Source of the DNA: an uncultured virus (IMG/VR IMGVR_UViG_3300030329_003290)
Lineage: Duplodnaviria; Heunggongvirae; Uroviricota; Caudoviricetes
Strand: one strand, 5' to 3'
DNA length: 20,000 bases
Virus record (IMG/VR): IMGVR_UViG_3300030329_003290
The position numbers and the translations under genes were made by a program. Positions 160-18,424 of this stretch are shown here, in pieces. The notes under the pieces are model-generated. The model saw only the letters and a program-made list of their open reading frames with translations, did no database searches and was not told the origin of the DNA. Positions within the stretch are counted from its first letter, which is position 1. Every line of letters begins with the position of its first letter.

Positions 160-753
160 TCAAGAGTTTTCTTCGAACCAATTTTCATCTTTGAAAACGA
201 TTTCATAAGTAGAAGCATCTTCCAAATCCACAACAACACTATTTAGATTAGTAGTAGCGCCTTCCTTACGATTGTTATTGTTTTCAGTAAGTGTATCAAT
301 AACATAATCAGTATGTGGTTTGATAATCAAAACACACTTCTCTTTCCAAAACACACCAAAATAGTGGTTGTGATTTGAATAAGCATCAATCGCATCTTGT
401 GTATATGCCCCATTGTAAACACCAGGAACTTTGAGAGCAGAAAATCTCAAACCTGTATTATGGTTTCTAATTTGACGAGTAAGATTACGAACCTCTTTGT
501 CGTTTATTGCCTTACTTTTATACTCAGCAGTTTGTCCATCAGCCTCATAAGCATCAGCACCATATTTATCACTACCTTTACCAGCAGAGATTTTATCAAA
601 TGCCTTATGGCCTAATTTTTCAGCTATAACAAATTCTCTCCATTGAGTCTTATCTGTAATTTTTTGAGCACCATCTCTTTCACCCATAAGATACATAGCA
701 TGAGCCAAATCCTCATAAGAGTAATTTTCAATCAAAGTGTCTATTGTTTTCAT
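160..753 (-). CDS. Hypothetical protein, possible PD-(D/E)xK nuclease fold
   Basis: Start moved to ATG 753 (SD GAGGA) because the track start overlaps the promoter. GADA...AEYKS resembles a D...ExK restriction-endonuclease-like active site. Confidence 0.6.
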   Translation of the reverse strand: MKTIDTLIENYSYEDLAHAMYLMGERDGAQKITDKTQWREFVIAEKLGHKAFDKISAGKGSDKYGADAYEADGQTAEYKSKAINDKEVRNLTRQIRNHNTGLRFSALKVPGVYNGAYTQDAIDAYSNHNHYFGVFWKEKCVLIIKPHTDYVIDTLTENNNNRKEGATTNLNSVVVDLEDASTYEIVFKDENWFEENS

Positions 754-779
754 ATTATTTTCCTCTTTCATAACACCTA

Positions 780-809
780 AAGCTAACATTAAAAACAGGT
801 AAAAGTCAA
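780..809 (-). promoter_or_regulatory. Sigma70-type phage early promoter, copy 1
   Basis: TTGACT-N18-TAGCTT; the same motif occurs 7 times directly upstream of genes. Confidence 0.8.
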
Positions 810-910: not shown

Positions 911-1420
911 TTAAAAGTCTCCTGGTGCTACTTGAAATGTATTCAAACCTAAATCTCTCCACATCTTCACAACCTTATCTCTGTCATCAACAACTAAAAA
1001 AACATCATCGATATCTACGAAAGTATCTAACATAGATTTCTTTAGTATTTCATCTGGCATAAATCTCATTTCAAATGTGGCAGGATTACCATCAGCAATC
1101 GGCCACGAGTCTGCTTTAAATTTATCTGGTCTCATAACTAAAAGGTCAAATGGTACATTATGTATCTTCAACCAATCTCTAGTAGCAAAAAACCCCCTAT
1201 CGTTCCTACCTGAAAAGATTACAATTTTGAATCCATCAGCTTTAAACAATTGAGCCATCTTTATAACTGGTACATTAGGTTCATCCCAATCCATAATAGA
1301 AGTAGGTGAAGCAAATATATCCCAATCCAACTTACCATTAGGTTTTAGCGATTTGTCTCTCCTAACATCAATGTTAGCAAGAGTTCCATCTAAATCAAAT
1401 ATAACTGTTTTCTTATTCAT
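911..1420 (-). CDS. HAD-family phosphatase (polynucleotide 3'-phosphatase, T4 PseT C-terminal-like)
   Basis: Motifs FDLDGTLA, FSGR, LVMRP, VVDDRDKVV and the C-terminal FQVAPGDF are typical of phage PNK phosphatase domains. Confidence 0.9.
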   Translation of the reverse strand: MNKKTVIFDLDGTLANIDVRRDKSLKPNGKLDWDIFASPTSIMDWDEPNVPVIKMAQLFKADGFKIVIFSGRNDRGFFATRDWLKIHNVPFDLLVMRPDKFKADSWPIADGNPATFEMRFMPDEILKKSMLDTFVDIDDVFLVVDDRDKVVKMWRDLGLNTFQVAPGDF

Positions 1421-1870: not shown

Positions 1871-1884
1871 TTGATTCTCCTTAG

Positions 1885-2308
1885 TGGAGCTGGGGGGATT
1901 CGAACCCCCGTCCAGTCTACTTTTTCCAATGAGTCATTCACAACTTAGTCAGGTTCCTACTAATACTATACGAAGTCACCTGCAACCCAATAACAACTTT
2001 GTTCAGAGTTGCCAACTGGCAGTTTCTTTAATCACTAACTTCCCTCTAGCTAAAGTGAGTTTGTCTAACTTATTTTATGACCGAGTGTTAGACAACTCAG
2101 TAACTTATGCAGCGTATGCGTAAGTTGGTTGGTAATCACCGATTGGTAAATCAACTGAGTAATCATACTCAGCTAAATGCCAATCTATCACCAACCCTTC
2201 GAGCGAATTATCGCCATTTGAGATTGTGAGTCTTTTATGTCAAGTAGTACTCAAACTCAGTTGCACTCAATTGTCAAATAGCACCTGTCGATTTCCATAG
2301 ACAGCCCC
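1885..2308 (-). ncRNA. ssrA: tmRNA (transfer-messenger RNA)
   Basis: 5' GGGGCTG..GGAAATCGAC and 3' GGACGGGGGTTCGAATCCCCCCAGCTCCA form an Ala-type tRNA-like domain with G3:U70; the internal frame ends YAYAA-TAA. 424 nt. Confidence 0.95.
2105..2215 (-). other. tmRNA tag reading frame GDNSLEGLVIDWHLAEYDYSVDLPIGDYQPTYAYAA*
   Basis: Open frame from CAAAT-GGC-GAT-AAT (typical resume context after PK1) to TAA; C-terminal AA degron. The resume codon is inferred. Confidence 0.75.
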
Positions 2309-13765: not shown

Positions 13766-14956
13766 TTATTCGTCAGCACCCATCTCTTCTTCATTGAACA
13801 AATCTTCAGAAGAACCATCAGAGACATACTTTTGAACAAGCTGTTTCACATAAGTTCTTTCAGATTCCATCCCACCATCATCCGAAAACTGAGGATAGAC
13901 AGTCACTTCAGCCGCCTCATCTAATCCGAAACCATCAAAGAGTAGTCCAGCTATCTCAACCGAAGTTCTGGTTGAAATTCCAGCAGACAACCGACCAGCT
14001 TCAGACTTTGACTCAGTTCTGGTTGAAGAAGCAATTTCAGCAACCGACTTTAGTAAGTCAGAATCAACATGCGGAAACATATAATCCAGTAATCCATGCT
14101 CTTCATCTGAGGTTAGAACATCCATCTCAACAATGATGAATCTATCCATCAGCGCCTTATCCATAACTCTGGTAGATGTATACTCATTACCAATGTTAGC
14201 GGTGGCAACGAAAGTAACACCCTCAGCCACATTGATAGTTTCTTGGCCTGAAGCCTCATCTAATCTGAGATATCTCTGACCATTGTCTAAGACAGTCATC
14301 AAAATATTCCAAGCATCAGGGTGAGCCCGACTCAACTCATCTAACAGAATAACAGCGTTAGGAGTTTGTATTGCCTTCACAAATAAAGACTCAGAAAAGT
14401 AAGTCCCAGCTTTTTTATCAAAGTGAACATTACCAATCAAAGTAGCCCTTGGATCCTGTGTAGCACCTAAGTTGAAATAAAAGTCAGGTCTGTCAAGTGA
14501 ATTTACCAATGACTTAGCAGCCATAGTTTTTCCACATCCAGCAGGACCTGTCATCAAAATATTCTTACCTCTAACAGCACTACGAACTAAGTACTTCCAC
14601 TTTAGTTCTTTCATAACCAAACCAGCAGGTTTGAGATTATAAGAAGAGTGAATGAAATTCAGCATCTCAGCATGATCAGTTGGTACATCAACTGAAGAAA
14701 CATCAATTACAGGAGCTGTGGTAGATTCAAATTCACTCATAGGAACTTTCCACCAGTAAATCCTACCAGCTTTACCAGTTCTTCGTTCCAATGCCATACC
14801 AGCATTATAAGCTTTTTTTCTGGTAGAAGTTCCAATGTGGGATGTGTATTTATTACCATCGGCATCCCATGCATTGAATCTGTTACCAGATTTTTCAATT
14901 TTTACAACTACTTTTTTATCCATAGTTTTTTTTCCTTTTGTTATTGTTTTACTCAT
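13766..14956 (-). CDS. MoxR/CbbQ/NirQ-type AAA+ ATPase
   Basis: Walker A GPAGCGKT, Walker B VILLDE, FVATAN, ALMDRF, ISTR; alternative SD-led start at 14923. Confidence 0.95.
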   Translation of the reverse strand: MSKTITKGKKTMDKKVVVKIEKSGNRFNAWDADGNKYTSHIGTSTRKKAYNAGMALERRTGKAGRIYWWKVPMSEFESTTAPVIDVSSVDVPTDHAEMLNFIHSSYNLKPAGLVMKELKWKYLVRSAVRGKNILMTGPAGCGKTMAAKSLVNSLDRPDFYFNLGATQDPRATLIGNVHFDKKAGTYFSESLFVKAIQTPNAVILLDELSRAHPDAWNILMTVLDNGQRYLRLDEASGQETINVAEGVTFVATANIGNEYTSTRVMDKALMDRFIIVEMDVLTSDEEHGLLDYMFPHVDSDLLKSVAEIASSTRTESKSEAGRLSAGISTRTSVEIAGLLFDGFGLDEAAEVTVYPQFSDDGGMESERTYVKQLVQKYVSDGSSEDLFNEEEMGADE

Positions 14957-15026: not shown

Positions 15027-15206
15027 TTATGATCTCCAAAACTTTACCCTATAACTTTCTTTTGTAAATGCTTCCCAAGTACACTGTTCAAATTTACATT
15101 TCCAATAATTACTAAAATGTTGCCGAGTGGTTGAAATCATTCTCCAACCACACGGACACATTGGATTTTCTTTATACTTACGATTGTGTAACCATTTGAA
15201 TATCAT
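15027..15206 (-). CDS. Small zinc-ribbon protein (59 aa), not in ORF track
   Basis: MIFKWLHNRKYKENPMCPCGWRM...YWKCKFEQCTW...*; TAATG-coupled to the VWA gene. Confidence 0.75.
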   Translation of the reverse strand: MIFKWLHNRKYKENPMCPCGWRMISTTRQHFSNYWKCKFEQCTWEAFTKESYRVKFWRS

Positions 15207-17287
15207 TACTTTTGTAAGAACTTTTTGTTCATTGTCTTAGCGACAGGAAGAACTGAGGTTACATCGATGAACTCAGCATCCGAACCATACATTCTGGTAA
15301 AAGTATTTTTACTTCTATCTCTATCCCAAGTATCTCCGATGAAATAACTAAGAACTTTTACACCACGATTACGAATCTCATTTACCATTTTGTTAGTGTG
15401 ATTGATTGCCGTATCATAGTTGTAATCGATATCATTATTAGAGAACATTGGCATTCCATCTGAAAAGTTTAGAAAGTAAGAATCTTTATCATTAGATGAT
15501 GGTTCAATTTCTTTCATCACAGCCTCAAAACATAATCCTTCAGGAGTAGTTCCTGATGGTGTTAGTAGAGGAAAAAGATTTTTGACTTTTTGAATTTTGT
15601 CAACTCTGGAATCATAAGCAATCAACATTAGTGGATAAGCATTTGAACTACGGCTTCTATAACCACCATTGGTATCTTGAGTACTTCTATAAGAGATAAC
15701 TAAATCAACATTGTTTATCATTGAACAGGCCTTAGCAATTGCCGCCACAGCGGTTTGAGTATTACTCCACTTATCTCCACCCATCGAACCACTAGCGTCA
15801 ACAGAAATGTGAAGAAAAGCATCTGAGTATTGTTCTACAAAAGTAGTATTGAAAATTCTCTCATTACCAAAACCTAACTCAGCAACTAATCTTTTATCGA
15901 TACGGCCAGAATCTTTTCTAGTCCACTTAGTCTCACGAGACTCACCACGCACCTGAAGTTTTCTACCTAAGATAGTTCCCATCACTAAACCCTTATCGAT
16001 AGCTACTTTATTAGACTCAACATAACCATAAGGATAATCTGGTTTGTAAATCATACGAACAGTATCAGACTCAGCCAGAGCTTTGTTGAATTTTCTAACC
16101 ATCAAAACTTTAGTAGGAGTTTTCTTACCATAGTAATTATCTGTAATACCTTGAGCAACATCAACATAACTCATTCCAGCAGACTCAACAGCATCCATCG
16201 AAGCTTTATCTTTTTTAGAAAGTTTCTTTTTGGTAATGTTACCATCCATAAATTTCTTCTGCTTTTTTACAGCGTTACTAAGCATTCTTTTTTGTCTATC
16301 TGATAAATCAGATAAATCCATATTGGAAGACTCACCAGCTTCTCCACTCATTGAATCGCCATCACCATCAGAATCGCCGTCACCTTTAGAACCCATATCT
16401 TTCATATCTTCACTACCCTCACCATCTCCATCGGATTGCCCTTCACCACCATCAGTTTTAGGTTGAGCTTCTATGTTAGTGAGTATAATATTGAAAACAT
16501 TTAGAGCAACACTAAATGCTTCAGCAGTAGAATCCAATGTTTTGACATTGGAAAATATTTCGGTTTTTATTTCTCTTAGTCCTGGAAGAACATCTAAAAG
16601 AGAATTCTTATTTGTAAGATTGATAATTCTAAACATATATGAATCCCAATCTACAGATGTGTATTCCTTAGAAACCAAAGCCTTATCAATCACATTAGCA
16701 TGAAAGTATTTGTCATACATAGAGTGATAATAACCTTTATAGCCAGGTGAATTTGAAAACACAAAGTAATCAATTCTCCTATCTTCTACATAGTTCAGTA
16801 AATCTTTTAGTTTACCAATTACTTCGTATCTTTCAATTCCAAGTGCTTCAGCCCTATTGAAGTATTCTTGTGGAATAGAATTTTCTAAGTTTTTTAGAAA
16901 ATCAAAATCTGAAAGTTTGATATGAGAACCCTCATGCAATGCCAAACCAACAGTTGAATCAAAAAGTTTGTCATCTAACTTAGAAGAGATAGTAACCGAC
17001 TTACCATCAGTATAACTATCGCCAGATGTATTGAAAGTAACTTTGATATCAGACTCACCAGTCACAATGGAAACAAAGTTACTGATAGCTCTCCTATAAG
17101 AAGCCAATGCAACTAAATCAACACCTTTTTTCTTCTCATCTTCATCAAAGATAGAAGTGTTGTTATCCCAACCATTATCCAACCAAAAAGAAGAATAATT
17201 GTTGGTACGATTACTAATAGAGTATTTCTCTCTAAGAGCCATCGGATTGAAATTATGTTTTATCTTTTTCATATTTTCCTTTTTCAT
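15206..17287 (-). CDS. VWA-domain protein (CobT-like) with N-terminal HExxH domain; MoxR partner
   Basis: LALHEGSH and YVEDRRID, acidic G/D/S linker, SGRID, MIDAS VDASGSM, GTTPE, FSDGMP; alternative SD-led start at 17272. Confidence 0.93.
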   Translation of the reverse strand: MKKENMKKIKHNFNPMALREKYSISNRTNNYSSFWLDNGWDNNTSIFDEDEKKKGVDLVALASYRRAISNFVSIVTGESDIKVTFNTSGDSYTDGKSVTISSKLDDKLFDSTVGLALHEGSHIKLSDFDFLKNLENSIPQEYFNRAEALGIERYEVIGKLKDLLNYVEDRRIDYFVFSNSPGYKGYYHSMYDKYFHANVIDKALVSKEYTSVDWDSYMFRIINLTNKNSLLDVLPGLREIKTEIFSNVKTLDSTAEAFSVALNVFNIILTNIEAQPKTDGGEGQSDGDGEGSEDMKDMGSKGDGDSDGDGDSMSGEAGESSNMDLSDLSDRQKRMLSNAVKKQKKFMDGNITKKKLSKKDKASMDAVESAGMSYVDVAQGITDNYYGKKTPTKVLMVRKFNKALAESDTVRMIYKPDYPYGYVESNKVAIDKGLVMGTILGRKLQVRGESRETKWTRKDSGRIDKRLVAELGFGNERIFNTTFVEQYSDAFLHISVDASGSMGGDKWSNTQTAVAAIAKACSMINNVDLVISYRSTQDTNGGYRSRSSNAYPLMLIAYDSRVDKIQKVKNLFPLLTPSGTTPEGLCFEAVMKEIEPSSNDKDSYFLNFSDGMPMFSNNDIDYNYDTAINHTNKMVNEIRNRGVKVLSYFIGDTWDRDRSKNTFTRMYGSDAEFIDVTSVLPVAKTMNKKFLQK

Positions 17288-17330
17288 TACAGGTAAAGCT
17301 ACGAATAATTTTGCTAAAATACAAGGAAAA
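17287..17330 (-). repeat. Early promoter copy 5; 44-nt direct repeat
   Basis: TTGTAT-N17-TAGCTT; 2 mismatches versus 14960-15003. Confidence 0.85.
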
Positions 17331-17332
17331 GA

Positions 17333-17893
17333 TCAACTTATTTCCAGTTTTTTTTGCCATTTTCGTTGTTTGGTAGTCATCATTTGCCACTCTGTAAGTT
17401 CATTTACGATATTTGATTTGTTCATTAGTGTTATCTTATCATCACTATATAAAGACTGTGTATAGTTACAAGCAGCGTAATATCCACTTTTATCATACTC
17501 TTTCATAACTAAATCAAGAGCTTGTTTCATTGAGAGCAGGGTGGGATTCGAACCCACGGATAACGGATTTGCAATCCGCCCCATTTGACCACTCTGGCAC
17601 CTGCTCGGCCTCAACATAGTGCTTTGTGATTCTCTATACTTTTTCAACCATCTGTCCCAACTCTTATCTGCCATAATACCCTTAGCTTTTTTAGTTCCAC
17701 CAGTACCTCTTCTGTCTAATCTATTTAGATTTTCAGATTGTTCTTCTGTTACTGGTTGGATAAAACCACCTGTCTTATGTGGATAAATAGTATGTGATGA
17801 ATATTTTTTTACAGATGAACACTCAACACATTCAGAGTAGCCAAGGTGTACTCTGTGCTTGTCCATTTTTGATTTACATTTTTTACAATTCAT
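17333..17893 (-). CDS. Zinc-finger protein (CxxC-x15-CxxC, DksA/TraR C4-like) containing a nested tRNA
   Basis: MNCKKC...RVHLGYSECVECS...YPHKTGG; the frame stays open through the tRNA-Cys into a helical C-terminal region. Confidence 0.8.
   Translation of the reverse strand: MNCKKCKSKMDKHRVHLGYSECVECSSVKKYSSHTIYPHKTGGFIQPVTEEQSENLNRLDRRGTGGTKKAKGIMADKSWDRWLKKYRESQSTMLRPSRCQSGQMGRIANPLSVGSNPTLLSMKQALDLVMKEYDKSGYYAACNYTQSLYSDDKITLMNKSNIVNELTEWQMMTTKQRKWQKKLEIS
17533..17606 (-). tRNA. tRNA-Cys(GCA), nested in the same-strand CDS
   Basis: GAGCAGG/CCTGCTC acceptor, D arm CCA-GAGTGGTCAAA-TGG, anticodon arm GCGGA-TTGCAAA-TCCGT, T arm GTGGG-TTCGAAT-CCCAC, U73. Confidence 0.93.
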
Positions 17894-17898
17894 ACTTA

Positions 17899-17928
17899 AA
17901 GCTACAAAAGAAAATGCATATAAGTCAA
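17899..17928 (-). promoter_or_regulatory. Sigma70-type phage early promoter, copy 6 (leaderless transcript likely)
   Basis: TTGACT-N18-TAGCTT, with ATG 17893 following after 5 nt. Confidence 0.8.
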
Positions 17929-17938
17929 GGAAAAAATA

Positions 17939-18007
17939 AAAAAAGGGTTCTATAGTTTTTTAAGTTTGTAATATAGTGGAAACTAAAAATCGGTCGAACC
18001 CTTTTTT
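17939..18007 (-). terminator. Long terminator-like hairpin with a structured interior
   Basis: AAAAAAGGGTTC...GAACCCTTTTTT (12 bp), inner TAGTTT/AAACTA helix, followed by a U tract. Confidence 0.6.
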
Positions 18008-18026
18008 GTAACATTGAAAAATTTTA

Positions 18027-18424
18027 GTGGGATGTAGGATTTGCGATTACACTACAACTTTTAGTTCAGATTTATTATACCTCGTACCTAACACCTAAGA
18101 GTTACCTTAGTTCTTCTAAATGATGGTTAGTCATCGTTGAAGTGAGTACAACCTCTGTGTTATTGCTTTATCTCTCTGACATAGATTAATTCAGCCATAA
18201 AGTGGGATTTCAGTTTTACCCTTACCCACAACAAGGTCAAAGAATCGCGTTCTTTATTTTCTAAAAGTACATTCCAAGTCTGATGTCCAGAAATCGTTTT
18301 TTATGACCACCACATTCGGCGGTAGATTAGTCACCACAACATCTTGGTAGATTCCCTTATGAGCTTCGATGTCACTCATTGTTCAGGCAATCCCATACAG
18401 AGTTAATTACTCTCTGTACTTTCT
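18027..18424 (-). ncRNA. Large multi-helix ncRNA, ROOL/GOLLD-class candidate
   Basis: About 400 nt with no track ORF, GC-richer than its flanks, with many nested helices (see findings); the ROOL resemblance is from memory. Confidence 0.7.

Follow-up and report, generated by a model that had tools for sequence, protein, structure and literature searches.

Can a single stretch of phage DNA serve both as a tRNA gene and as coding sequence for the middle of a protein? The question is raised by a complete tRNA gene in the window (the whole 20,000-nucleotide stretch of DNA that was analysed), which lies in the sense orientation within an open reading frame and is followed, in that same frame, by a further protein domain. 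A preliminary description had placed a canonical tRNA-Cys(GCA) inside a same-strand ORF of 186 aa that runs without a stop codon up to the tRNA, and both points were upheld by the present analysis. The features concerned are these:

17333-17893, minus strand: a single 186-codon gene, stop included, for a conserved two-domain phage protein (ORF list, family alignment A1)
17636-17893, minus strand: N-terminal part, codons 1-86, with a CxxC-x15-CxxC zinc ribbon, a YPHKTGG beta hairpin, RLDRR and a helix ending in SWDRWLKKY (A1 and AF2)
17607-17635, minus strand: 29-nt spacer (RESQSTMLRP) leading from the N-terminal part to the tRNA, common to L013-type carriers and missing from type-2 carriers (junction sequences)
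17533-17606, minus strand: tRNA-Cys(GCA), 74 nt to the discriminator U73, read as codons 96-121, the interdomain linker
17570-17572, minus strand: anticodon GCA, tRNA positions 35-37 (ARAGORN and direct reading of the sequence)
17528-17530, minus strand: in-frame ATG two bases past the discriminator (T-C-A-ATG), a lineage-specific codon and not a conserved start
17336-17527, minus strand: C-terminal helical domain of four helices with conserved GY and I-x-L motifs (AF2 helices 122-185)

The tRNA was recognized by ARAGORN, which called tRNA-Cys(GCA) at 17532-17606 (-), and by Rfam model RF00005, which matched 17533-17606 (-) with 64.1 bits (gathering score, 29). Its acceptor stem, GAGCAGG/CCTGCTC, is followed by the discriminator T at 17533 and, with no CCA encoded, by the tail U73-C-A; the GCA anticodon and the U73 discriminator are identity elements for CysRS. 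When the tRNAs of relatives were aligned, the four helices of the cloverleaf were paired in 99.5% of cells, 15 of 20 pairs had changed on both sides, and none of 500 shuffles gave a covariation signal as high. Nested tRNAs, which measure 74, 73 or 71 nt depending on the version, score 52.3-64.1 bits, compared with 52-72 for free copies. A stop-free tRNA in this register would not in itself be unusual, and free tRNA-Cys genes of three relatives (L023, L027 and L045) have no stops in the window's register either. Chance does not account, however, for two flanks that are parts of a single conserved gene and that remain in frame from one relative to the next.

The frame of the host gene contains no stop either ahead of the tRNA or within it. 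The tRNA begins at the third base of codon 96, and codons 96-121 translate as PSRCQSGQMGRIANPLSVGSNPTLLS, as originally described, leaving 65 aa after the tRNA. AF2 predicts coil for the tRNA-coded stretch, with 10-residue block means of pLDDT of 49-61 over residues 91-120 and values below 50 at 95-105 and 113-115, while the block means of the C-domain are 90-95 over residues 121-180, dropping to 75 at 181-186. In alignment A1, H39, K40, T41, R58, D60, R61 and R62 are invariant and C3, C6 and C22 nearly so. The function of the protein was approached through several searches. Pfam gave no match for the window protein at E<=0.1, and the C4 zinc finger of DksA/TraR (PF01258) matched 0 of 21 family members at E<=1 despite the CxxC-x15-CxxC pattern; the nearest named cluster in the atlas, zf-dskA_traR with a score of 0.87, is a lead only. 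PHROGs returned only matches of E=0.02-0.04 to families without an assigned function, Foldseek found nothing in the PDB at E<=0.001, and a wide VIA-align search gave only generic helical matches for residues 115-186 (Z<=7.0).

A library search with the host protein yielded 167 matches at E<=1e-3. Alignment of homologues had been suggested as a check on whether the two domains belong to one protein chain whose linker varies, and they do so in every 3'-complete locus (153/153), each of which has the zinc-ribbon N-domain and the helical C-domain in a single open frame; to judge from this family, the frame is one real gene. Relatives that lack the tRNA have a Lys/Pro-rich linker (WDRWLK.YY-NPKPxKKKFVPKP..IYIP-IKEAM), and in carriers these anchors enclose the tRNA instead, in some cases together with a spacer. 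The linker slot holds a tRNA in 14 locus entries including the window, representing 12 contigs and 11 distinct proteins of uncultured marine phages, and the occupant is either tRNA-Cys, in two versions, or tRNA-Gly(UCC) (L047 and L059). One library record, P0012, has the C-domain behind another N-terminus whose initial 45 residues have matches of 80-89% in contigs that bear a giant-virus MAG label; it is probably chimeric or miscalled, and it was dropped as evidence for a split gene, a matter on which it tells nothing.

In all 14 carrier entries the tRNA is in the sense orientation, in frame and free of stops, and its covarying pairs are retained. Two more ordinary explanations had been raised at the outset: that relatives would have a stop before the tRNA and thus two genes flanking it, and that an assembly error had removed such a stop. 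None of the tRNA-bearing relatives has a stop there, and an assembly artefact is ruled out because the nested arrangement recurs in independently assembled contigs (L077, L078, L013, L079-L081, L014, L084 and L085). Spacer, tRNA and the following 2 nt together take four lengths (114, 87, 108 and 93 nt), each a multiple of 3. The type-2 tRNA-Cys is 1 nt shorter and has a stop in its own frame 1; it is entered in another frame, and the upstream length compensates.

The reading that we favour, with a probability of about 0.6, is that a functional tRNA gene has replaced the linker, and that read-through protein and excised tRNA are alternative fates of one transcript. The tRNA would have taken the place of a Lys/Pro-rich, probably disordered linker in a two-domain protein, and would be the phage's only tRNA-Cys in the visible DNA. 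The gene would be transcribed within a long minus-strand message. Ribosomes starting at 17893 would translate through the tRNA, adding a 26-residue linker to give the full-length protein, and in most carriers such read-through would be the only route to the C-domain. Where the tRNA part is free of ribosomes, it would fold, host RNase P and 3' nucleases would release the tRNA, CCA would be added later, and the release would cut and inactivate that copy of the mRNA. A given transcript could thus be translated, be processed to tRNA, or be translated first and processed later. The simplest reading of its origin is that the tRNA was inserted where the linker tolerated it, and that only in-frame versions have persisted because both products are needed.

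The surroundings of the gene include two further RNA features:

18029-18230, minus strand: manA RNA motif, a riboswitch candidate, directly upstream of the gene (Rfam RF01745, 61.3 bits vs. a gathering score of 55.2)
1882-2308, minus strand: phage-type tmRNA

The manA RNA motif may form part of the gene's 5' leader; it is also found upstream of the homologue in L001. Elsewhere in the window, a PNKP-phosphatase-like gene occupies 911-1420. A scan for promoters and terminators gave weak consensus matches only, and no terminator-like site was found between the tRNA and the C-domain. Parts of the stretch occur in 21 marine RNA-library runs, with word shares of 0.15-0.24. RNA contigs from four runs (X1, X2, X3 and X8) cover the manA region (~17992-18300) and, once, 17279-17460, with none over the tRNA or the N-domain; being contigs, they are silent on ends, processing and absence. 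Both tRNA processing and read-through are accordingly inferred, as is the competition of the two uses on the transcript.

Selection on the protein bears on the first alternative, in which the tRNA is only a tRNA and the protein gene of carriers is dead or dispensable, its open frame being due to chance and recent origin. This is unlikely. The C-domain downstream of the tRNA is under purifying selection between carriers, with dN 0.05 and dS 0.43 for L014 vs. L085, and dN 0.34 and dS 1.05 for the window vs. L013, the protein's need in tRNA carriers being argued here from dN/dS. The 11 distinct carrier proteins keep the frame through spacer indels and with C-domain identity as low as 37% (L047 vs. 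L059), and the lack of stops in all carrier entries speaks against a dead gene as well. On the other side of the argument, tRNA-Cys is intrinsically free of stops in this register, and only three or four in-frame configurations are independent, which by chance would arise with a probability of ~(1/3)^3 to (1/3)^4, stops being left out of account; L078, L085 and other recombinants are not further independent cases, having inherited their frame through homologous flanks. Broken alleles also exist or may exist in the family: the C-domain of L283 is frameshifted, and the library protein P0021, which starts like L059, exits the family frame within the tRNA-coded stretch and lacks the C-domain; P0021 may be a broken allele. 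Its DNA was not found among the viral contigs, where the best locus was the L059 contig at 90% identity.

The preliminary description had gone further and proposed a regulated punctuation switch, in which excision would divide the transcript into three: an N-terminal mRNA that lacks a stop and becomes a substrate of the phage's own tmRNA, the mature tRNA-Cys, and a near-leaderless message for the C-domain. It also took the Cys codons as a hint of feedback from the supply of Cys-tRNA, considered here in the form of ribosomes that stall within the zinc ribbon and so feed back on tRNA-Cys production. The geometry of the window does fit, with its U73-C-A-ATG junction, a tmRNA in the same stretch and Cys at codons 3, 6, 22 and 25 upstream, and the same non-stop/leaderless model was proposed for selB-selC (Mukai, 2021; PMC8124441). 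The comparison with relatives nevertheless makes such a switch improbable. The ATG, although present in the window, is found after the tRNA only in WIN/L076, L077 and L078, so that a near-leaderless C-terminal mRNA is not a conserved product; other carriers have ATT, ATA, ATC or ACT at this codon, and tRNA-less relatives encode I, V or Y there. In L013-type carriers and L059, the frame offers no ATG, GTG or TTG from the end of the tRNA to the GY motif. No Shine-Dalgarno-like sequence precedes the window's ATG, the upstream bases being the 3' end of the tRNA itself. The tmRNA of the description is indeed there, but the link is not specific, for G004 and G005, relatives without the nested tRNA, carry a tmRNA too. 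Feedback from the supply of Cys-tRNA is itself unlikely, given that L047 and L059 have tRNA-Gly(UCC) in this slot. The four ribbon cysteines, moreover, are conserved in all relatives, whether tRNA-bearing or tRNA-less. Nothing in the sequences points to a tuned regulatory switch.

A third possibility is that the nested element is an exapted relic, a former tRNA that is no longer processed or charged and now merely encodes a linker. The type-2 version, which has the lowest score (52.3 bits) and an A-C mismatch at the last anticodon-stem pair (A2 columns 32 and 40), could be read in this way, as could the lack of an encoded CCA; however, the free tRNAs of these phages likewise lack CCA and share the U73-CAA tail. 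More telling is that the tRNA is conserved above the coding sequence of the folded domains around it, even though it encodes low-confidence coil. Identity between the window and L013 is 89% for the tRNA, 66% for the N-domain and 67% for the C-domain; the corresponding figures are 100%, 71% and 90% for L014 vs. L085, and 97%, 72% and 51% for L047 vs. L059. Compensatory changes are also seen between the window and L013, both nested and with the same spacer, where A2 columns 5/69 have gone from A-U to C-G and columns 12/24 from A-U to G-C. Such stem changes between nested copies force radical substitutions on the linker (Q to R, M to T and L to R). Furthermore, decayed T-loop remnants were found in 0 of 142 tRNA-less ORFs, and no second tRNA-Cys was found in the three sources of nested tRNA-Cys (window, 20 kb; G001, 96 kb; G006, 30 kb), a sole-copy argument that concerns genome fragments with a CheckV completeness of 17-52%. 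In G004, a relative without the nested tRNA, a free tRNA-Cys belongs to a tmRNA-Ala-Cys-Gly cluster, and the window's cluster lacks tRNA-Cys; in the fragments of three other tRNA-less relatives (G005, G007 and G009) no tRNA-Cys was seen. Together these observations render a relic very unlikely.

Lastly, an intron-like insert, excised as a tRNA by RNase P and a 3' endonuclease with religation of the mRNA halves, is scarcely credible: the 3'-OH and 5'-phosphate termini that RNase P and RNase Z produce could be joined by an RNA ligase, and the PNKP-phosphatase-like gene could be cited in its favour, but taking out exactly 74, 73 or 71 nt shifts the reading frame whichever version is considered and would bring the window's joined message to a stop within a few codons, in contrast to the read-through lengths, so that self-removing inserts of the intron or intein kind were rejected by frame arithmetic.

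The dual use of the sequence thus accords best with the comparisons. Because the lengths are in frame, the tRNA is conserved and covarying, and the C-domain is selected while lacking a start of its own in two lineages, both the tRNA and the reading frame look selected.

How does this arrangement relate to known systems? In mitochondria, tRNAs lie between genes, and their excision from a polycistronic transcript defines or cuts the mRNAs, as is proposed for the present locus too; here, in contrast, both flanks belong to one gene, as the 3'-complete relatives attest, and there are no separate genes to punctuate. A mitochondrial tRNA gene that, like the present one, is fully integrated in a coding region has been described within cox1 of Armadillidium vulgare and, as reported by the citing paper, was ascribed to genome compaction (Doublet et al., 2015, as cited in PMC8124441). 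Phage T4 offers an overlap of segB with tRNA-Arg, in which tRNA maturation cuts the mRNA and leaves a message without a stop, and lower protein output has been suggested (PMC2330249). As would be the case in the locus described here, a phage ORF in a tRNA region has its mRNA cut by tRNA maturation; segB, however, is cut between its last sense codon and its stop, an overlap at the end of the ORF, and the tRNA there encodes no protein sequence and is followed by no downstream domain.

The closest precedent is the selC gene (tRNA-Sec), predicted to be nested in the selB ORF of Alphaproteobacteria (Mukai, 2021; PMC8124441). In both cases an entire sense tRNA lies in an ORF and would be translated, the frame is kept across relatives, and an encoded CCA is often lacking. 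The proposed outcome, a non-stop upstream mRNA with protein and tRNA as alternatives, is also shared, and both cases are bioinformatic only. The differences are that selC forms a C-terminal extension, followed only by a stop that overlaps the start of the next ORF, whereas the present tRNA takes up codons 96-121 of 186 and is followed by the conserved C-domain; that SelB binds its nested tRNA, whereas here a Cys or a Gly tRNA fills the slot, with no known link to the protein; and that the setting is bacterial there and a phage group here (PMC8124441). Closer to home are the ordinary tRNA clusters of these phages, with free tRNA-Cys beside the same gene in relatives, which share the tRNA type, the U73-CAA tail and the minus-strand polycistronic context, and in which processing must cut a long mRNA too; the free copies lie between ORFs, unlike that of the window. 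No report of a phage tRNA nested in mid-gene was found in the full-text literature searched, subscription journals lying outside its coverage. When positions 17000-18300 were compared with 50,697 phage records by blastn, only the tRNA matched (16 records, from unrelated phages), and tblastn of the N-domain against phage records gave nothing at E<=0.01.

A bolder extension of the dual-use reading, which we regard as unlikely, is that the linker slot acts as a coupling device in which ribosome traffic over the nested tRNA sets the output of protein vs. tRNA. If upstream codons were translated slowly, as might happen at the four zinc-ribbon Cys codons during a shortage of Cys-tRNA, the tRNA would be exposed to RNase P and its supply would rise, and phages could re-arm the slot with Cys or Gly tRNAs by exchange of linker cassettes. 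If true, this would amount to a form of feedback resembling attenuation, with an ORF-nested tRNA as its working part.

Until now, the only complete tRNA predicted to lie within a bacterial-type ORF was selC, in the part of selB that encodes the C-terminal tail (PMC8124441). New here are the position of the tRNA in mid-gene, where it stands in place of a linker and precedes a conserved domain that would be made only by translating the tRNA, and the occurrence of two different tRNAs and several length versions in the slot. The locus would be a natural test bed for competition among translation, RNA folding, access of RNase P and non-stop rescue within one molecule. For annotation, the usual rule that bars a tRNA from overlapping an ORF on its own strand would lead to this gene being split or removed in error, and tRNA-coded peptides are already present in protein databases as 'protein' (P0001 and P0003). 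For protein evolution, the locus indicates that a disordered linker may be encodable by a sequence dictated by RNA structure, and, for the phages themselves, it suggests that tRNA genes move as small cassettes that survive where in-frame insertion is tolerated.

The loci compared here indicate that a tRNA gene also encodes the stretch joining the two domains of a conserved phage protein, an arrangement that recurs with two tRNA identities. In the window, ARAGORN places a tRNA-Cys(GCA), one of three tRNAs, at 17532-17606 on the minus strand, and the Rfam tRNA model matches 17533-17606 (minus strand) with 64.1 bits, above its gathering score of 29. The ORF list places this tRNA within a 186-aa frame (17333-17893, minus strand), confirming the preliminary description of a tRNA-Cys inside an open reading frame. 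The first nucleotide of the tRNA is base 3 of codon 96, and the peptide read from codons 96-121 is PSRCQSGQMGRIANPLSVGSNPTLLS; 3' of the acceptor stem, the discriminator T (17533) is followed by C, A and an ATG at 17528-17530. An intron-like tRNA is excluded, because removal of 74, 73 or 71 nt (the lengths of the nested tRNAs) shifts the frame.

Homologues were used to determine whether the two domains form one polypeptide, as the preliminary description had asked. A search with the first 95 aa gave 12 IMG/VR loci, and in every one the zinc ribbon and the part past the tRNA position are encoded in one open frame of ~165-185 aa; a library-wide phmmer search (E<=1e-3) gave 167 relatives, many of them full-length at 170-180 aa. 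An alignment of 21 members was then the query for further loci; it brought in 63 viral loci and, from at least 597 matching metagenome loci, the 80 best. Altogether 156 entries were examined (L001-L155 and the window; some contigs were fetched twice), representing 127 distinct protein cores. Because 125-150 residues follow the PHKTG motif in every 3'-complete entry (153 of 156), both domains share one frame, and the polypeptide is single in 153/153. AlphaFold2 modeling on the 21-member alignment predicted an N-terminal zinc-ribbon/beta-hairpin plus a helix at 78-91, a coil at ~92-121 (10-residue block mean pLDDT 49-61 over 91-120; <50 at 95-105 and 113-115) and a confident four-helix C-domain with helices within 122-185 (block means 90-95 over 121-180). 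In this model, codons 96-121, supplied by the tRNA, belong to the low-pLDDT coil that joins the two folded domains.

In relatives lacking the nested tRNA, the linker is Lys/Pro-rich, as in L082 (WDRWLKNYY-NPKPVKKKFVPKPKPMPVYIP-IKEAM). Carriers of a nested tRNA amount to 14 entries including the window, from 12 contigs and with 11 distinct proteins: L013, L014 (= L005), L047 and L059 among the viral loci, and L076 (identical to the window), L077, L078, L079-L081, L084 and L085 among the 80 metagenome loci. Ranking of the metagenome loci by similarity to the window inflates their carrier share, and 4/63 viral loci is the less biased frequency. The nested tRNAs are of three kinds.

Nested tRNA types
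Type-1 tRNA-Cys: 74 nt, preceded by a 29-nt spacer; window, L077 and L013 group
Type-2 tRNA-Cys: 73 nt, immediately 3' of ...KKYN; L014 group, L078 and L085
tRNA-Gly(UCC): 71 nt, two spacer lengths; L047 and L059

Insert length, counted from just past WDRWL to the first codon 3' of the tRNA, is 114, 87, 108 or 93 nt, each a multiple of 3. Type 2 has a D loop one base shorter than type 1 and contains a stop in the frame of type 1; it is read in another frame, and the two readings merge in the 3' half (RIANP..VGS.PTLLS). Free tRNA-Cys copies, located outside the gene, are likewise open in the register of the nested copy, so the stop-free tRNA is an intrinsic property. In several tRNA-less relatives such copies adjoin the gene (L060, 55 nt upstream; L023, L027, L045 and L046, ~700 nt downstream), making a local source for the nested copy plausible. 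None of the tRNAs examined, free or nested, has an encoded CCA, and U73-CAA follows in all. This tail of discriminator T plus CAA (e.g., window 17531-17533; L023 2852-2856) was seen in every tRNA-Cys and tRNA-Gly examined, except for CTA in L078, and may be a 3'-processing signal common to them.

With linker columns excluded, a tree of 123 rows requires at least 4 changes of tRNA state, and the window and L077 fall within tRNA-less sequences. Two mosaics, L085 (L013 N-domain, 99%; type-2 tRNA; L005-type C-domain, 89%) and L078 (type-2 tRNA inside window-like flanks), imply recombination breakpoints at or adjoining the tRNA. Recombinants were not counted as independent, because homologous flanks pass on the frame, and independent in-frame configurations are few.

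Both readings of the DNA bear signs of selection. Nested copies score 52.3-64.1 Rfam bits and free copies 52-72. Ten aligned tRNA-Cys (3 nested, 7 free) show 99.5% pairing of the cloverleaf, with both-sided changes in 15/20 pairs, a level reached by 0/500 shuffles. The window and L013, which presumably descend from one nested ancestor because the spacer is common to both, differ by two compensatory double changes (tRNA alignment columns 5/69 and 12/24), and these cause radical amino-acid replacements in the protein reading.

Identity between carriers
Window and L013: tRNA 89%, N-domain 66%, C-domain 67%
L014 and L085: tRNA 100%, N-domain 71%, C-domain 90%
L047 and L059: tRNA 97%, N-domain 72%, C-domain 51%

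By these comparisons, the tRNA is more conserved than the domain-coding flanks, the reverse of what would be expected of a segment merely coding for coil. On the protein side, no stops or frameshifts were found in the 14 carrier entries, and the C-domain 3' of the tRNA shows dN 0.05 and dS 0.43 between L014 and L085, a signature of purifying selection between carriers. L013 and L059 contain no in-frame ATG, GTG or TTG from the tRNA to the conserved GY motif, so their C-domain would be obtainable only via ribosomes reading through the tRNA. At the sequence level, these results show two constraints acting on a single DNA stretch, one to keep a cloverleaf and one to keep an in-frame linker free of stops.

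One protein counts against this dual use: P0021, a library relative of L059, departs from the frame inside the segment coded by the tRNA and has no C-domain; a search for the DNA encoding it was unsuccessful. Broken copies do occur in these data, as the tRNA-less relative L283 (1034-1537) changes frame within the C-domain, past GYD, and would be either a frameshifted allele or a sequencing error. Another library protein, P0012 (98 aa), joins a window-like C-domain to an unrelated 45-aa N-terminus that recurs at 70-89% in hundreds of contigs, many labelled giant-virus MAGs (loci L191-L270); a chimera produced in assembly or gene calling is the probable explanation.

Within the visible sequence, the nested copy looks like the working tRNA of the phage.

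tRNA content of the window and related contigs (all fragments, completeness 17-72%)
G001 (96 kb, L014), nested Cys: tRNA-Gly and tmRNA; tRNA-Cys as nested copy only
G006 (30 kb, L013), nested Cys: nested tRNA-Cys only
Window (20 kb), nested Cys: cluster of tmRNA, Ala, ORF and Gly; no Cys in cluster
G002 and G003, nested Gly: sole tRNA-Gly is the nested copy
G004, tRNA-less gene: cluster tmRNA-Ala-Cys-Gly
G008, tRNA-less gene: one free tRNA-Cys
G005, G007 and G009, tRNA-less gene: no tRNA-Cys in the fragments

The window is phage-like, with all long ORFs on the minus strand.

Other features of the window
911-1420, minus strand: HAD protein, 169 aa, PNKP phosphatase domain PF25109 (E=1.3e-25)
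1882-2308, minus strand: tmRNA (Rfam)
13766-14956, minus strand: AAA/MoxR-CbbQ-like ATPase, PHROG 'porphyrin biosynthesis'
15206-17287, minus strand: 693-aa acidic-linker protein, relative of PHROG 'cobalamin biosynthesis protein'
18029-18230, minus strand: manA RNA motif (riboswitch candidate; RF01745, 61.3 bits), with the nested-tRNA gene immediately downstream

The tmRNA, also found at G001:14429-14840, G004:71000-71414 and G005:89665-90074, is a trait of the whole phage group and adjoins a small tRNA cluster of variable content (Ala-Cys-Gly in G004, Ala-ORF-Gly in the window, Gly alone in G001). In the window, the HAD protein, by its domain a putative RNA-end-healing type enzyme amid tRNA and tmRNA genes, ends 5 nt short of tRNA-Ala (832-905), and the 209-aa ORF between tRNA-Ala and tRNA-Gly (160-789, minus strand) had zero Pfam matches; the corresponding interval of G004 reads tRNA-Ala, a 7-nt gap, free tRNA-Cys, ~290 nt and tRNA-Gly. 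The ATPase and the 693-aa protein form a pair immediately downstream of the nested-tRNA gene, which we take to resemble CobS/CobT. A manA motif also lies upstream of the L001 homologue (2659-2863), whereas a scan of 18 further related loci revealed none. Over the motif in the window, contigs assembled from four marine RNA libraries accumulate to a summed depth of up to ~1350, among them an exact 272-nt piece spanning 18029-18300; none of these assembled marine contigs covers the nested tRNA.

tRNAs mature through 5' cleavage by RNase P, 3' processing by endo- and exonucleases, and CCA addition. Release of the nested tRNA would require cutting the mRNA both at 17606/17607 and at a site close to 17533, so that one transcript copy could not serve both uses simultaneously, and the upstream cleavage product would be a non-stop mRNA. 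Passing ribosomes would hold the tRNA unfolded, while a copy without ribosomes would fold; the minimum-energy fold of a 154-nt context retains the acceptor, anticodon and T helices. The preliminary interpretation of a tRNA-punctuation switch holds in part: the tRNA is nested in one in-frame gene, but three proposed corollaries fail. The ATG after the tRNA, suggested as the start of a C-terminal mRNA, is found in the window lineage only; tRNA-Gly occupies the same slot, which argues against Cys-specific feedback; and tmRNA is not tied to the nested tRNA, being present in G004 and G005, which lack it, as well as in G001.

The closest known case is a predicted tRNA-Sec gene within the selB ORF, which its author presented as the first instance of a tRNA nested inside a bacterial ORF (PMC8124441). 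A non-stop/leaderless outcome was proposed there too, whereas that tRNA forms a C-terminal tail rather than a mid-gene interdomain linker (PMC8124441). For segB of phage T4, tRNA-Arg maturation was suggested to cut the message just past its last codon, ahead of the stop (PMC2330249), and mitochondrial examples are cited in the selB paper (PMC8124441). No report of a phage tRNA nested mid-gene was found in the full-text papers searched, subscription journals being outside their scope. The arrangement is regarded here as a dual use, first tolerated and then maintained, and not as a demonstrated switch. A linker-nested tRNA is surprising, well replicated at the sequence level and directly testable.
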